DNA of 64,000 nucleotides from an uncultured bacterium (GCA_964423505.1 CAYREX010000002.1:24188-88187), one strand, 5' to 3'. Counted from the first letter of the stretch, positions 5,855 to 50,211 are shown. Translations and numbers: made by a program. Notes: generated from the letters alone by a model not told the origin.

Positions 5855-7027
5855 TCAGTCCAGCAGCACCACCGGCGCCGACAGGCGCCGCCCCAGGGCC
5901 TCCATCACCACCACGTAGACCCCGGGAGGGGCCTCCCCCTCCCACTCGAAAGCGCTCCGGCCAGCCGGCAGGGCGGCATCGTGAAGGAGCTCCAGGAGCC
6001 TGCCGCGGAGGTCGTAGACCGCCAGCTCCACCCGGCCGGGCTCCTCGAGTCTGACTACGAGGGAGACGGCCCCCGTGGCCGGGCTCGGCGAGGGGGGCGA
6101 GAGCAACGTCCCGGAAGGGTTGCCGGTCTCCCCCGCGCTCTCGTACTCCTCCCACCGGAAGGTGCTCCTGCTGCTGTTCACCCAGCTCCCTCCGGACCGG
6201 GTCCTCGCCACGACCATGTTGTTGTTGCCGTGGACGTCGTAGGAGTACTGGTAGTGCATCCAGTCGACCCAGCCGTCCTCCCAGGTCTCGTAGAGCACCT
6301 CGGAGAGCCGCCCGCCCGAGTAGGTGTAGCTGCACAGCAGGGAGCTCTCCCATGCGGAGCCGGACCAGTCGCTCAGGAGGGACTCGCTGAGGAGGTCGCC
6401 CTGGTAGGTGTAGGTGGTGAGGGAGTGGTTCACCCATGAGCTGCCGGACCAGCTCCGGCCGAGCGTCTCCGAGAGCAGCTCCCCCCGGTAGTCGTAGGTG
6501 TACAGCCAGGAGTTCTCCCAGGAGTCGGCGGCGCTCCAGGTCCGGACGAGGGACTCCGTCATGTTGCCCGACTGGTACTCGTAGGTGGTCAGCGTGCTGT
6601 TGACCCAGCCGCCGGACCACGTCTGAGTGAGAACCTGCCGCGGCTCCTCCCCGCCTTCGTAGGTGTAGGTGCTCAGCTGGCGGTCCTGCCAGGACGAGCC
6701 GGAGCGCTGCTGGTAGAGCATGGTCTCCAGCCTCTCCTGGGAGTCGTATCCGTAGACGTAACGGTAGGAGCTCTCCCAGGAGCTGCCGTCCCAGGTCTCG
6801 TAGAGGACCTCCGCGATTCGGTCGTCGTCCTCTCCGACGTAGGTGTACGTCGCCCTGGTGGTGTAGTCCCAGGAGCCGCCGGACCAGCTCTCGTAGGTGG
6901 CCTCGGTCATCCGGTAGGCGCTCCCCGCAGGCGGCTGCGGCGCCGGATACCCCTCCGGCGGAGGCGAGCCGGACGCCGGGCAGGGCGCGGTCAGACCGAG
7001 GCAGAGAGCCATCAGCAGAGGGTGCAT
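5855..7027 (-). CDS. secreted tandem-repeat protein (approx. 9x ~20-aa W-S-G-S-S-W...Y-T-Y repeats) with T9SS/FlgD-Ig-like C-terminal sorting domain
   Basis: ATG 7027 with GAGAGGAG RBS. Signal peptide MHPLLMALCLGLTAPC. Repeats such as ESWSGGSWDYTTRATYTY, ETWDGSSWESSYRYVYGY, RSWSGSSWVNHSLTTYTYQG. C-terminus VELAVYDLRGRLL...GVYVVVMEALGRRLSAPVVLLD resembles the Por-secretion CTD. Confidence 0.6.
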   Translation of the reverse strand: MHPLLMALCLGLTAPCPASGSPPPEGYPAPQPPAGSAYRMTEATYESWSGGSWDYTTRATYTYVGEDDDRIAEVLYETWDGSSWESSYRYVYGYDSQERLETMLYQQRSGSSWQDRQLSTYTYEGGEEPRQVLTQTWSGGWVNSTLTTYEYQSGNMTESLVRTWSAADSWENSWLYTYDYRGELLSETLGRSWSGSSWVNHSLTTYTYQGDLLSESLLSDWSGSAWESSLLCSYTYSGGRLSEVLYETWEDGWVDWMHYQYSYDVHGNNNMVVARTRSGGSWVNSSRSTFRWEEYESAGETGNPSGTLLSPPSPSPATGAVSLVVRLEEPGRVELAVYDLRGRLLELLHDAALPAGRSAFEWEGEAPPGVYVVVMEALGRRLSAPVVLLD

Positions 7028-45845: not shown

Positions 45846-45846
<1 letters not shown>

Positions 45847-46472
45847 TGGCCATCCAGGTCCGGGCAACCCGGATGGAGCTGCTGCAGTACCGCAAGAAGG
45901 TGAAGCTCGCCAGCAGGGGGCACAAGCTGCTCAAGGACAAGCTGGACGAGCTGATGCGGCAGTTCAAGATACTGCTCGCCGAGTACGAGGGGGCAAGGAG
46001 AGAGCTGGAGAACGAGCTCTCCCAGGCCTACGGCGAGTTCCTCTTCGCCAGGGCCGCCATGACCCCGCAGGGGCTGGACGATGCGCTCAGGTACCCGGGG
46101 GCCGAGGCCAGGGTGCAGACCACCACCCGCCGGGTCATGAACCTGACGCTGCCGGAGTTCGAGGTCACGCTGGAGGGAGACGTCAGGAACTACGGGATGT
46201 TCGACACACCGGCGGAGCTGGACGAGGCGCTGGAGGTATATCGGGAGGTCCTGCCCCACATCATAAGGCTGGCGCAGCAGGAGAAGGCCATAAGCCTGCT
46301 GGCCAAGGAGATAGATACTACAAGGAGGAGGGTGAACGCCCTGGAGTACAAGCTCATCCCCGAGCTCGAGGAGGCCATCGCCAGCATCCGTTTGAAGCTG
46401 GACGAGATGGACAGGGGCAACCTCACCCGCCTGATGAAGGTCAAGGAGATGGTCGACGCCAAACGGACCTAA
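45846..46472 (+). CDS. atpD: V/A-type ATPase subunit D (central stalk)
   Basis: MAIQVRATRMELLQYRKKVKLASRGHKLLKDKLDELMRQF... Confidence 0.85.
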
Positions 46473-47606
46473 GCCGGGCGTTCCTTATTTGATTTGGTAA
46501 GCTATCTTTGTCCCCTACAAGCATGATAAATGAATTTGTTGCATCCAGTGGGTTTCCTGGATACACTCGAAGTATGCCGTATGTGATGAGGTTGGATCAT
46601 CCGGGTAGCCTACACCACGTCATGTCGCATTGCGTGGAGGGATGCTGGGCCTTCTCCGGAGACAGGGCTCGGGAGGATTTCGTCCGGCGACTCACGGGAC
46701 TAGTCACTGAATCTCAACTCGCCTTGCATGCCTGGTGCCTGATGGGAAACCACCTGCATCTCCTCGTGGAGGCTGGCGAGAATGGCATTACCCGACCCAT
46801 GCATCGGTTGCTCTGCGGATTCGCCAAGGCCTACAACAAGAGAGAGGACAGACGCGGCCATGTCTTCGATGCACGCTTCAAATCCATTCTTGTGGAGGGA
46901 TGCCTCTATTATCTCGGTCTCATAGCCTATATCCACCTGAATCCCATCAGAGCCGGGGTCCTGGCAGGCTTGGATGAGCTTGTGGAATACCCCTGGACAG
47001 GACACTCCGAGATTATGGGCGAAGTCGAACGCGGCATTCTGACCTTCGGGAGATTGACAGAGGAGTTGAACACGGACATCGGGACTCTCCGGGCCAGCTA
47101 TAAGTGCTTGCTCGAAAATAGGCTACACAATGATGCCCCGGAGTTCGAGAGCGGTACGTATTGCATTGGTCCTGCAGGTCTGATGGAGTACGCAACCGGG
47201 GTCATGAGCTCCAGGGCTTCCCCGATACTGGGAAGCAGGAGCTTCGCGCTGAAAATGTACTCCCGCTACAGAGGAACCGCCAGGAGAACGCTGAGGTGCA
47301 GGGAGTCACAGCACCGGACCCTGGAGGATTTGCTGTCCTCGTTCTCCACAGAATCCGGGATACCCGTCAGTACTCTGAGAAGTGGGGCGCGGGATCGCAG
47401 GCTTGTGCGAGTCAGGCGGAAGCTGACCACCAGAATGTCAGAGCTTGGCATGTCGCAATCCGATATAGCATCCTTCCTCGGGATATCAGCATCCACGGTT
47501 CACAGAATCCTCAGAGGTCGCGACTCATGCTGCAGGCCGTCTGAGTTCGAATAAAGGCCCAAGCGTTCCCAAATAGCCTTACCAAATCAAGTAAGGAAAG
47601 CCCGGC
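46473..47606 (+). mobile_element. IS-like unit: HUH Y1 (IS200/RAYT-family) transposase gene bracketed by ~34-bp imperfect inverted repeats
   Basis: Left GCCGGGCGTTCCTTATTTGATTTGGTAAGCTAT (46473-46505). Right ATAGCCTTACCAAATCAAGTAAGGAAAGCCCGGC (47573-47606) is its reverse complement with ~30/34 identity. The unit exactly fills the gap between the atpD stop and the elbB-like stop. Confidence 0.6.
46523..47554 (+). CDS. tnpA: IS200-like / REP-associated tyrosine (Y1 HUH) transposase with C-terminal DnaA-domain-IV-like HTH
   Basis: RLDHPGSLHHVMSHCVEG, HUH motif HLHLLVE, catalytic Tyr region YIHLNPIRAG. C-terminal SQSDIASFLGISASTVHRIL. Start uncertain (ATG 46523 or ATG 46574). Confidence 0.7.
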   Translation: MINEFVASSGFPGYTRSMPYVMRLDHPGSLHHVMSHCVEGCWAFSGDRAREDFVRRLTGLVTESQLALHAWCLMGNHLHLLVEAGENGITRPMHRLLCGFAKAYNKREDRRGHVFDARFKSILVEGCLYYLGLIAYIHLNPIRAGVLAGLDELVEYPWTGHSEIMGEVERGILTFGRLTEELNTDIGTLRASYKCLLENRLHNDAPEFESGTYCIGPAGLMEYATGVMSSRASPILGSRSFALKMYSRYRGTARRTLRCRESQHRTLEDLLSSFSTESGIPVSTLRSGARDRRLVRVRRKLTTRMSELGMSQSDIASFLGISASTVHRILRGRDSCCRPSEFE

Positions 47607-47607
47607 G

Positions 47608-48258
47608 TCAGAGGAGGTCGGTGAGTTCCTCGACCATGCGGACGGCGCCGGCGTAGACCTCGGCCGGGCCCTTCGCGAGCATGTAGGCCGGGGTGGTGAC
47701 CAGCCTGTTCCGGCGGTCGACCACCGCATCGTCCACGTCGCACTCCACGTGGCTGGCGCCCATGGCCTCTATCGCACCCGCCGTGTCCGGGTCGCTCCCT
47801 ATGGTGACACGCGCGCCGGGGACGGTCTTCGCCAGTATCACCGGGGCGATGCACATCGCCGCAACGGGAACGCCGCCTTCCACCGCCTCTCCTATGAGAC
47901 GCTCCACATCGGGGTCCACCTCGCACGCCGGCCCGTCGGTGGCGAAGGTGGAGAGGTTGAGCGCGGCGCCGAAGCCTCCCGGGAGCACAACCGCGTCGAA
48001 GTCGCCGGCATGTACCTCCGAGAGAGGCGTTATCTCCCCCCGGGCTATCCTGGCGGACTCCGCGAGCACGCTCCTTGCCCCCCCGGCCTCCTCGCCGGTC
48101 AGGTGATCGACGGTCACGGCCTGCTCCCTGTCCGGGGCCGCGAAGGTCACGTCGAATCCAGCCCTGTCCAGGGCTATGAGCGCCGCGACCGACTCATGTA
48201 TCTCCGAGCCGTCCCTGACGCCGCATCCTCCGAGTACGAAGACCACATTCCTTCCCAT
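47608..48258 (-). CDS. elbB: DJ-1/PfpI-superfamily protein, ElbB-like (class I glutamine amidotransferase-like fold)
   Basis: MGRNVVFVLGGCGVRDGSEIHE...AMCIAPVILAK... Confidence 0.65.
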   Translation of the reverse strand: MGRNVVFVLGGCGVRDGSEIHESVAALIALDRAGFDVTFAAPDREQAVTVDHLTGEEAGGARSVLAESARIARGEITPLSEVHAGDFDAVVLPGGFGAALNLSTFATDGPACEVDPDVERLIGEAVEGGVPVAAMCIAPVILAKTVPGARVTIGSDPDTAGAIEAMGASHVECDVDDAVVDRRNRLVTTPAYMLAKGPAEVYAGAVRMVEELTDLL

Positions 48259-49116: not shown

Positions 49117-49941
49117 GTGCCGGCCGAAGTGAGCTCACCGATCTTCGACATGCACGTACACACCGTCGACTCCCCGGACGCGTCTATCCCGGCCGCGGAG
49201 CTGGTAGGCCTCGCCGTCGAGCGTGGTCTCGCCGGACTCGGGTTCGTGGCTCACGTTGACCTGGACCCGGATGACTACTGCTACGGGTGCTTCGACCCCG
49301 CGGGGTACGACCGCTCGCTCTCGAGGGCTGCCGAAGAAGCGCCTGACGGTTTCGCGGTCATGAAGGGCGTGGAGGTGGGAGAGCCCCACCTGCACGGCCG
49401 TGCGGCCTCGGAGCTGGTGGACTACGACAGCTGCGACTTCGTGGTCGGGGCGATGCACTGGACCAGGGGCGTCGGCCTCATCCTCGACGAGGGAGCCTTC
49501 CCCGGGTCAGATCCGCTCGAGGTGGTGGAGGCCTACCTGGCGGAGACCCTCGAGATGGTCCGGGAGGCGGACATGGACGTGCTCGCCCACCTGGGGATGT
49601 TCAGGAGGGGCATGGCAATGGCCGGACACCGGACCGACCTGGACGAGGTCGTCCTCTGGCCCCGCCTGTGCAGGCGCATAATGGAGACGCTCGTGGAGAG
49701 GGGCATCGCACTTGAGGTGAACACCGCCGGGCTCAGGAGGGCAGAGGCGGTGACCTATCCCACTCCCCGGATGCTGGTGCTCTACCGCGAGACGGGCGGC
49801 GAGCTGGTCACTCTCGCCTCCGACACCCACTCGAGGAAGAACCTCTTCTACGGCCTCGGAGAGGGGCTCGCAGTGGTGCGACGGGCCGGGCTCCCCGCCC
49901 CGTGCGCCTTCTCCGGCCGTCGGCCGGTCCTCCCGGGGTGA
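49117..49941 (+). CDS. PHP-family histidinol-phosphatase-like phosphoesterase (HisJ/HisK type)
   Basis: IFDMHVHTVDSPDA (PHP motif I), further His/Asp metal ligands, GLAGLGFVAHVD. Confidence 0.65.
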   Translation: MPAEVSSPIFDMHVHTVDSPDASIPAAELVGLAVERGLAGLGFVAHVDLDPDDYCYGCFDPAGYDRSLSRAAEEAPDGFAVMKGVEVGEPHLHGRAASELVDYDSCDFVVGAMHWTRGVGLILDEGAFPGSDPLEVVEAYLAETLEMVREADMDVLAHLGMFRRGMAMAGHRTDLDEVVLWPRLCRRIMETLVERGIALEVNTAGLRRAEAVTYPTPRMLVLYRETGGELVTLASDTHSRKNLFYGLGEGLAVVRRAGLPAPCAFSGRRPVLPG

Positions 49942-49989: not shown

Positions 49990-50085
49990 AGAGCACCGTC
50001 GGGCAAACCGGGGGAGACCCCGGGACGCAAAGCCACGGGTCCCAGCCACCGCATGGGGACGGTGGAAGGACGGCCGGGTTGCCGT
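49990..50085 (+). promoter_or_regulatory. c-di-GMP-I (GEMM) riboswitch, copy 1
   Basis: GGGCAAACC-GGGG-GAGA-CCCC-GGGACGCAAAGCCACGGGUCC...GGACGGCCGGGUUGCCG. This matches the GEMM core (GCAAACC, GNRA loop, GGGACGCAAAGCC, 3' AGCNGGGUUNCCG element). Confidence 0.7.
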
Positions 50086-50168
50086 TTGCAGAGGCAAACC
50101 GGGGGAAACCCCGGGACGCAAAGCCACGGGTCCCAGTCCGGGAGACCGGAAAGGACAGCCGGGCCGCC
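50086..50168 (+). promoter_or_regulatory. c-di-GMP-I (GEMM) riboswitch, copy 2 (tandem)
   Basis: GAGGCAAACC-GGGG-GAAA-CCCC-GGGACGCAAAGCCACGGGUCC...GGACAGCCGGGCCGCC. 43-nt core identical to copy 1 apart from the tetraloop. An 8-bp hairpin CCGCCCCG-GGAA-CGGGGCGG follows, immediately 5' of the GAGGAGG RBS. Confidence 0.65.
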
Positions 50169-50211
50169 AGACGACCGCCCCGGGAACGGGGCGGTTGAGG
50201 AGGTGCTCGAG

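Follow-up and report, generated by a model that had tools for sequence, protein, structure and literature searches.

The segment between positions 46473 and 47606 of the 64,000-nt (64-kb) stretch of DNA analysed here (the window) is very probably a TIRtron, a cassette of about 1.13 kb in which two terminal inverted repeats (TIRs) of 33/34 nt enclose a single gene for a TIR-associated tyrosine transposase (TIRYT, TnpA_REP subclass 2.1) with a putative promoter of its own. The cassette would be an ancient resident of its site that has undergone little further transposition. We infer a single insertion in the distant past, where two convergent genes meet at their 3' ends, followed by vertical inheritance with little or no transposition; present mobility appears to be very low. 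By sequence, the host is assigned to an uncultivated Fermentibacterota (Aegiribacteria-like) lineage; the nearest named AtpB proteins are from Candidatus Aegiribacteria (89-90% identity) and Fermentibacteraceae (87%).

The two convergent stop codons enclose 1134 bp (46473-47606), and the ends of this segment form the inverted repeat. The left arm begins one base past the TAA of the upstream gene, and the right arm is separated from the elbB stop codon by 1 nt. With a single indel allowed, 31 of 34 alignment columns match between the arms, which bears out the sequence-only reading that inverted repeats fill the convergent intergenic gap. That reading had named the upstream neighbour atpD; it is indeed a gene for an ATPase D subunit, the last of an A-B-D run, but of the V-type enzyme and not the F-type beta subunit. 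The features of the locus are as follows.

45846-46472, + strand: V-type ATPase subunit D gene, upstream neighbour (PF01813, E 1.6e-55); stop codon TAA at 46470-46472
46473-46505, + strand: left terminal inverted repeat, GCCGGGCGTTCCTTATTTGATTTGGTAAGCTAT, found by inverted-repeat search; homologous arms in relatives
46539-46567, + strand: internal promoter-like box, TTGCAT (46539-46544), a 17-nt spacer and TACACT (46562-46567), 6 nt before the ATG
46574-47554, + strand: predicted TIRYT gene, 326 aa plus stop (from the ORF list, homologues and the AlphaFold2 (AF2) model)
46574-47023, + strand: predicted N-terminal HUH/Y1 nuclease domain (about aa 1-150), with the HUH motif H60-L-H62 at 46751-46759 and Tyr119 of YIHLNP at 46928-46930
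47300-47527, + strand: predicted C-terminal DnaA-domain-IV-like helix-turn-helix (HTH) domain (about aa 243-318)
47573-47606, - strand: right terminal inverted repeat, reverse complement GCCGGGCTTTCCTTACTTGATTTGGTAAGGCTAT, found by inverted-repeat search
47608-48258, - strand: elbB (DJ-1/PfpI family glyoxalase), convergent downstream neighbour (NF008747, E 9e-81); stop codon at 47608-47610

Mechanical ORF calling placed the gene at 46508-47554 on the + strand with a TTG start at 46508. The true start is most likely the ATG at 46574, giving a protein of 326 aa, since homologues of 313-345 aa begin with MP and a conserved TTGnnn-17-TACAnT box lies 6 nt upstream of this codon. The same layout (TTGnnn-17-TAnAnT-6-ATG) recurs at seven related loci (L015, L018, L031, L032, L066, L072 and L076), and we infer that the gene probably has its own internal promoter and a leaderless mRNA, a consensus promoter scan not having called this box in the window. 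Automatic gene calls give a shortened protein of 270 aa, in which the first conserved nuclease strand is lost and only an "HTH" label remains.

Alignment and structural modelling identify the predicted protein as a RAYT-branch HUH/Y1 single-strand-DNA nuclease domain fused to a DnaA-domain-IV-like double-strand-DNA-binding domain, with its catalytic residues intact. The motifs read in the ORF are HHVMSHCVEG, NHLHLLVE, YIHLNPIRAG and, at the C terminus, SQSDIASFLGISASTVHRIL. The scores of the window protein itself fall short of model cut-offs, both for Pfam Y1_Tnp (PF01797; cut-off 23 bits, window protein 19.9-20.0) and for the REP-associated tyrosine transposase model of NCBIfam (NF047646; 45.7 bits against 80, E 5.7e-12), which was nonetheless its best sequence-model match. 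The HUH assignment therefore relies on the family. In an alignment of 63 sequences (the window protein and 62 homologues), H60, H62, Y119, N123 and P124 are invariant, and profile matches were obtained to Y1_Tnp in 61 of the 63 (E <= 0.01, best 7.5e-14), to Bac_DnaA_C in 31 and to HTH_23 in 20. An AlphaFold2 model built from this alignment (pLDDT 92.4, pTM 0.80) has the HUH nuclease fold by fold match: a Foldseek search with it returned the E. coli RAYT-REP complex (4ER8) as the top match, with the transposases of ISDra2 and IS608 ranking next. Both domains proposed from sequence, an HUH/Y1 enzyme of the RAYT branch and a C-terminal HTH resembling DnaA domain IV, are thus recovered in the family, and the Pfam architecture suggested for the protein holds at that level, although not for Y1_Tnp in the window protein taken alone. 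Sequence searches of the PDB with the protein gave weak generic HTH matches only, and those of PHROGs gave HTH regulators only. An Rfam search of the cassette returned nothing at E <= 1. Elsewhere in the window, Rfam at the gathering threshold identified two c-di-GMP riboswitches only, both outside the cassette.

It had been thought anomalous, in the sequence-only reading, that a Y1 transposase should be flanked by terminal inverted repeats, but this premise is outdated. RAYT-like genes with long TIRs and no REPs have been described as TIRYTs, and the units that they form as TIRtrons (Di Nocera 2013, BMC Genomics 14:522, PMC3733652); they correspond to subclass 2.1 of TnpA_REP, which contains 20 of the 26 published TIRYTs and is characterized by long proteins whose C-terminal HTH has affinities with Bac_DnaA_C, HTH_23 or HTH_28, by an absence of REPs nearby and by low copy number, and which occurs in 14.9% of strains (Quentin 2018, BMC Genomics 19:475, PMC6006769). 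TnpA_REP class 2 is defined by the motif Y---NP and by an HuH with a hydrophobic middle residue (PMC6006769), and the window protein has YIHLNP (Y119, N123 and P124 invariant) and HLH. By its predicted architecture the window unit belongs to the TIRYT/TIRtron class, with which it shares the HUH/Y1 core with Y---NP, a length of ~325 aa, the C-terminal HTH (Bac_DnaA_C/HTH_23), long TIRs in place of REP hairpins, low copy number (a single copy in the window) and no REPs nearby. It differs in its host, an uncultivated Fermentibacterota lineage, and in its arms. The majority of published TIRYT TIRs share GGGGWSAS, the others being mutually unrelated (PMC3733652), whereas the window arms start with GCCGGGCRTAA. 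The absence of GGGGWSAS from the arms, together with the sub-threshold scores against PF01797 and NF047646, counts against the TIRtron reading.

The cassette was also compared with better known systems. The RAYTs of REPtrons (E. coli TnpA_REP, 4ER8) have in common with the window the HUH motif and a single catalytic Tyr in YxxxNP, a single-copy vertically inherited gene and inverted flanking sequences, but they are proteins of about 150-165 aa that lack a DnaA-like domain, and their genes lie between REP palindromes that bear a GTAG foot and number in the tens to hundreds; nothing of the kind was seen at the window cassette. The TnpA proteins of IS200/IS605 elements (IS608, ISDra2; about 130-150 aa) act on subterminal hairpins rather than TIRs, often accompany tnpB and belong to multi-copy, near-identical elements that also occur on plasmids; the window cassette has 33/34-nt TIRs, no hairpins at its ends and a single copy in 64 kb. 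Despite its resemblance to DnaA domain IV (PDB 1J1V, 3PVP), the predicted protein has no AAA+ domain and so is not a replication initiator, and the window repeat is unlike the DnaA box TTATNCACA, a point that applies equally to the published TIRYTs (PMC6006769).

The arms stand out within the window. Their gapless core (46473-46501 and 47578-47606) is 29 nt long with 93% identity and extends with one indel to 46473-46505 and 47573-47606. Among the 25 longest inverted-repeat pairs listed for the window, the cassette arms are the only one above 84%. A 19-nt arm core occurs at two sites only in the 64-kb window, and two matches arose in 0 of 100 shuffles. No further arm copies were found in the window, and about 0.5 Mb of related loci yielded only a remnant at a deleted site (locus L029, discussed below). 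The exact arm core CCTTAYTTGATTTGGTAAG had 12 single matches among 185,579 reference genomes, all in unrelated AT-rich genomes, against a chance expectation of ~17 by hand estimate; since these matches are near chance and confined to unrelated genomes, the source species is evidently absent from the collection, and it is for a collection without that species that no multi-copy arm family was detected. The cassette as a whole is single-copy in the window and occupies one slot per lineage in relatives, the basis for a genome-wide number being 64 kb of this genome. Among 72,556 plasmids, no relative matched >=80% of the protein length.

Folded alone as single-stranded DNA, the arms gave minimum free energies of 0 to -3.5 kcal/mol, with z-scores of -1.7 to +1.6 that amount to noise. 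We rejected the possibility that the individual arms are small hairpins, as a 6-bp stem exists only in the right arm of the window (-3.5 kcal/mol, with as good a fold in 12 of 200 shuffles) and neither the left arm nor other loci share it. Pairing of the two arms in the gene's own RNA was likewise rejected, because the conserved promoter lies internal to the left arm and the transcript would lack that arm. A conserved GTAG or CGTC foot is absent from the aligned arms, as is GGGGWSAS, the arms beginning with GCCGGGC[A/G/T]T. The arms are not REPs, given that they form no hairpin, have no conserved GTAG and occur in no further copies in the window. In a separate search, the REP-like sequence GGGGACAYGCAC, taken from the empty site of L029, had no exact match in the window and five one-mismatch matches against 1.1 expected, all off the cassette.

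Examination of relatives indicated that the repeats accompany the cassette and not the site. P0002, the closest homologue that is not identical (49% identity), has the same gene order, V-ATPase A-B-D / gene / elbB, and sits between the arms of a 31-nt inverted repeat, GCCGGGCATAATTTAGTTAAGCTGATAGTCT; the V-ATPase A-B-D / elbB slot with a gene flanked by an inverted repeat recurs in P0007/L018, L028, L031 and L065. Homologous arms were found in L015, L018, L028, L031, L032, L065 and L072, only the left arm being visible in L032, which ends at a contig edge. The same arm family (GCCGGGCATAACTTACTTAA..., GCCGGGCRTAA-type) is present at a second kind of site: in P0018, whose protein is 40% identical, the gene lies between rpmB - tmRNA and PFOR within a perfect 26-nt repeat, GCCGGGCATAACTTACTTAACTAATT, that starts 2 nt past the tmRNA 3' end and stops 2 nt short of the PFOR stop. 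The L072 inverted repeat is a perfect 26 nt. Two distant paralogues on one 2.5-Mb contig (L076 and L077) have repeats of their own whose sequences are unrelated, one a perfect 27 nt and the other 32 nt at 91%, with arm spacings of 1073 and 1152 nt, and a different repeat type was read by eye at L066. In total, inverted repeats flank every family member with DNA inspected, namely the window and nine other distinct cassettes (among L015, L016, L018, L028, L031, L065, L066, L072, L076 and L077). The repeats are a property of the cassette rather than of the place where it inserted.

Evolution of the two arms is also concerted. In a comparison of seven cassettes, complementary cells make up 92% and 14 of 28 positions have changed on both sides, a degree of covariation that was reached in 0 of 500 shuffles and that fell to 19-43% pairing when the registers were slid. 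Two arms of one locus share 23-27 of 28 positions, and arms of different loci 16-24. Invariant positions read GCCGGGC.T...TTA.TT.A, and TG at positions 23-24 is present in 6 of the 7 cassettes. Concerted change of this kind is predicted equally by a shared binding protein and by pairing of the arms in single-stranded DNA.

These observations bear on the two explanations offered from sequence. The first was a REPtron-like unit, in its full form a true REPtron whose arms are copies of a genome-scattered REP/REPIN family mobilised by this RAYT. The protein comes close to this description, its best sequence model and its best structural match both being those of RAYTs; single-copy genes and vertical inheritance are typical of RAYTs (Bertels 2017, PMC5581495), and some TIRYT repeats do make moderate repeat families (PMC3733652). 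We nevertheless regard it as very improbable, for the protein is twice the RAYT length and has a dsDNA-binding domain in addition, its match to NF047646 falls far short of the cut-off, and the arms have neither hairpins, a conserved tag nor extra copies in the 64 kb. The second explanation, that a repeat-less IS200-like gene split a pre-existing bidirectional terminator palindrome into two arms, is refuted. It would account for the position of the arms, precisely where the convergent genes end, and for outer tips of 7 nt (GCCGGGC/GCCCGGC) that are GC-rich and resemble a terminator stem. However, the arm family is present at the unrelated tmRNA/PFOR site, distant paralogues have their own repeats (that of L076 being perfect), and changes in concert across lineages are not expected of split halves. 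An empty site between atpD and elbB, of the kind that the sequence-only reading had proposed to look for, does exist in a relative (L062), but it contains no palindrome of the arm type; at the empty site of L029 only the left tip is retained. Moreover, the consensus scan scored no terminator-like site.

Residence of the cassette between atpD and elbB extends across a Fermentibacterota (Aegiribacteria-like) clade. There are at least 10 variants in this slot (the window, P0002, P0003, P0004, P0005, P0007, P0010, L028, L031 and L032, with P0003, P0004 and P0005 assessed by gene order only), and they are 44-54% identical to the window protein. A neighbour-joining tree of AtpB and AtpD gave ((L015,L018),L029),(L028,L031), followed by a gene-less clade, with the window outside. 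Identities among the Y1 proteins are 74% for L015-L018, 64% for L028-L031, 50-52% between these pairs and 45-49% to the window, and relationships among gene copies, as judged from these values, match the host tree. In L029, which is nested among carriers, the gene is absent and the left-arm tip GCCGGGCATAG is kept as its atpD stop codon; we read this as a probable secondary deletion of the cassette. (The unrelated palindromes that fill this empty site do contain GGGGWSAS.) In L028 and L031 the TAA at left-arm positions 9-11 serves as the stop codon of atpD; elbB reads into the right arm and terminates there in L018, L028, L031 and L065; and the right arm lies <=16 nt from, or overlaps, the elbB stop in 5 of the 6 carrier loci checked. 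These shared boundaries between arms and stop codons favour one ancestral insertion. The two non-saturated pairs give a dN/dS of 0.12-0.14 for the gene, so the protein is kept by purifying selection.

An alternative history, in which the cassette is an active site-specific insertion sequence and the atpD/elbB site has repeatedly received related cassettes in different lineages, by new entry or by exchange, instead of inheriting one ancestral insertion, is in our view improbable, but several observations point in its direction. The GC content is about 0.55 within the cassette versus 0.65-0.70 in the flanks (about 10 points lower). In the closest pair, L015 versus L018, dS is 1.32 for the Y1 gene and 0.16-0.38 for the neighbours, a 2-7 fold excess in synonymous divergence, and differences at four-fold sites are 0.525 for Y1, 0.28 for D, 0.12 for elbB, 0.03 for A and 0.32 for the downstream kinase. 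In addition, relatives have empty and alternatively filled sites, the same arm family lies beside tmRNA, a classic integration hotspot, and the tmRNA slot holds, in two lineages, 39%-identical proteins with unrelated repeats. On the other hand, the divergence of the flanks is itself uneven (0.03-0.32 at four-fold sites), so that the Y1 excess is not a clean outlier; the cassette is single-copy wherever seen; gene-copy identities track the host tree; full-length relatives were not detected on plasmids; and the coincidence of arms with stop codons on both sides would be hard to produce by independent insertions. The raised synonymous divergence and low GC are not predicted by strict co-divergence and could reflect exchange of cassettes among relatives, weaker codon bias (GC3 is 0.60 for the Y1 gene versus 0.69-0.84 for its neighbours) or a raised local mutation rate.

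The remaining alternative, which we hold to be unlikely, is that the cassette is a domesticated module kept by the host at convergent gene ends, its protein and co-evolving repeats acting jointly. Lying between elbB and the V-ATPase operon, such a module might serve, for example, as a protein-bound boundary or as a site of nicking linked to replication, and an HUH enzyme acting on its own locus would explain the local synonymous excess. Clade-wide persistence, purifying selection, an invariant active site and tips that form the stop codons of the neighbours are compatible with domestication without proving it. The unit may persist as a selfish element that hardly moves, or it may serve the host.

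For the preferred reading, a resident TIRtron, a mechanism can be proposed by analogy. Binding and cleavage by the window protein are suggested by homology. The DnaA-like domain would bind iterated submotifs of the TTA/TTAA type in both arms as duplex DNA, and this binding could bring the cassette ends together (synapsis). The HUH/Tyr119 centre might then nick and rejoin one strand at the invariant GCCGGGC tips while the DNA is transiently single-stranded, a chemistry modelled on the RAYT (4ER8), IS608 and ISDra2 TnpA proteins, which act on hairpins. The activity may serve rare excision and reinsertion, or a role at the level of the host.

Neither of the descriptions of TIRYTs consulted (PMC3733652, PMC6006769) mentions a fixed syntenic slot, concerted arms or a nested loss such as those found here. 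TIRYTs of subclass 2.1 are present in about 15% of sequenced strains (PMC6006769). The series of loci offers a handle on the family: ~ten orthologous cassettes in one slot, a second slot by tmRNA, a nested loss and arms that co-vary. It also separates the invariant arm positions (GCCGGGC.T...TTA.TT.A..TG) from the co-varying ones, and both sets are starting points for work on binding and cleavage. Finally, an annotation trap is corrected, in that the 270-aa gene call hides the predicted nuclease domain under an "HTH" label.

The gap between the convergent genes atpD, which encodes the V-type ATPase D subunit, and elbB is not reserved for the TIRYT cassette. The same position is occupied in a sister clade by a pair of paralogous genes, found at four loci:

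L024, 4359-5621: two paralogous genes in the atpD-elbB slot
L027, 4809-6082: two paralogous genes in the atpD-elbB slot
L025 and L026: the same two genes

Each paralogue encodes a protein of about 200 aa with a hydrophobic, signal-peptide-like N-terminus and a C-terminal end reading ...TWADIKAAF or WADIKSAF, after which a GC-rich hairpin follows. The presence of two other genes in the sister clade indicates that the atpD-elbB gap varies in its contents and has three or more states. In L029, a close relative that has lost the cassette, the "empty" site is itself filled:

L029, 4640-4770: two REP-like palindromes, GGGGACATGCACC...GGTGCGTGTCCCC

The tips of both palindromes fit GGGGWSAS, the motif published for many TIRYT TIRs (PMC3733652), and the palindromes adjoin the retained tip of the lost cassette, GCCGGGCATAG.

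In some lineages, the cassette ends also extend into the reading frames of the neighbors. The V-ATPase D gene takes its stop codon from the outermost 11 nt of the repeat, GCCGGGCRTAA, in several of the lineages compared:

L028, 4632-4642: outer 11 nt of the repeat
L031, 2688-2698: outer 11 nt of the repeat
L029, 4629-4639: outer 11 nt of the repeat

On the opposite side, the elbB reading frame enters the right arm by 11-16 nt (carriers L018, L028, L031 and L065), so that the cassette ends encode part of the C-termini of the neighboring proteins. Comparison of the whole loci of two co-occurring carrier strains, L015 and L018, both from assembly ERZ24794676, revealed an approximately ten-fold spread in synonymous divergence between genes (for atpA the four-fold-site difference is 0.03, for the PAS kinase gene 0.32), which suggests a recombination mosaic.

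A homologous cassette occupies a second slot in another clade, directly 3' of the tmRNA gene and abutting the stop codon of PFOR:

L072, 3503-4991: cassette with repeats of the GCCGGGCATAA family
L066, 3420-5120: cassette with different repeats, AAGTG.CGTACTTCACTT...

The two proteins are 39% identical, and L066 carries an additional inverted repeat copy upstream, forming a REPIN-like doublet.

The TIRYT gene has been called automatically on public contigs of identical sequence:

L013, 1434-2246, and L014, 1514-2326: gene calls corresponding to window 46808-47554

Both calls begin at Met79, giving 270 aa and removing the nuclease domain's first strand; because of this truncation, the product is on record with weak HTH matches only and not as a transposase.

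Two further elements were observed in the window:

49992-50171, + strand: two tandem c-di-GMP-I riboswitch aptamers (RF01051, 64.9 and 59.7 bits)
6271-6909: six diverged copies of a 52-nt unit

Across 44 nt the aptamers are 98% identical to each other; the pair is located some 50 nt downstream of a PHP-domain gene (49117-49941). The copies of the 52-nt unit, spaced 84-171 nt apart and 62-73% identical to the reference copy, probably represent a repeated protein domain within a coding region.
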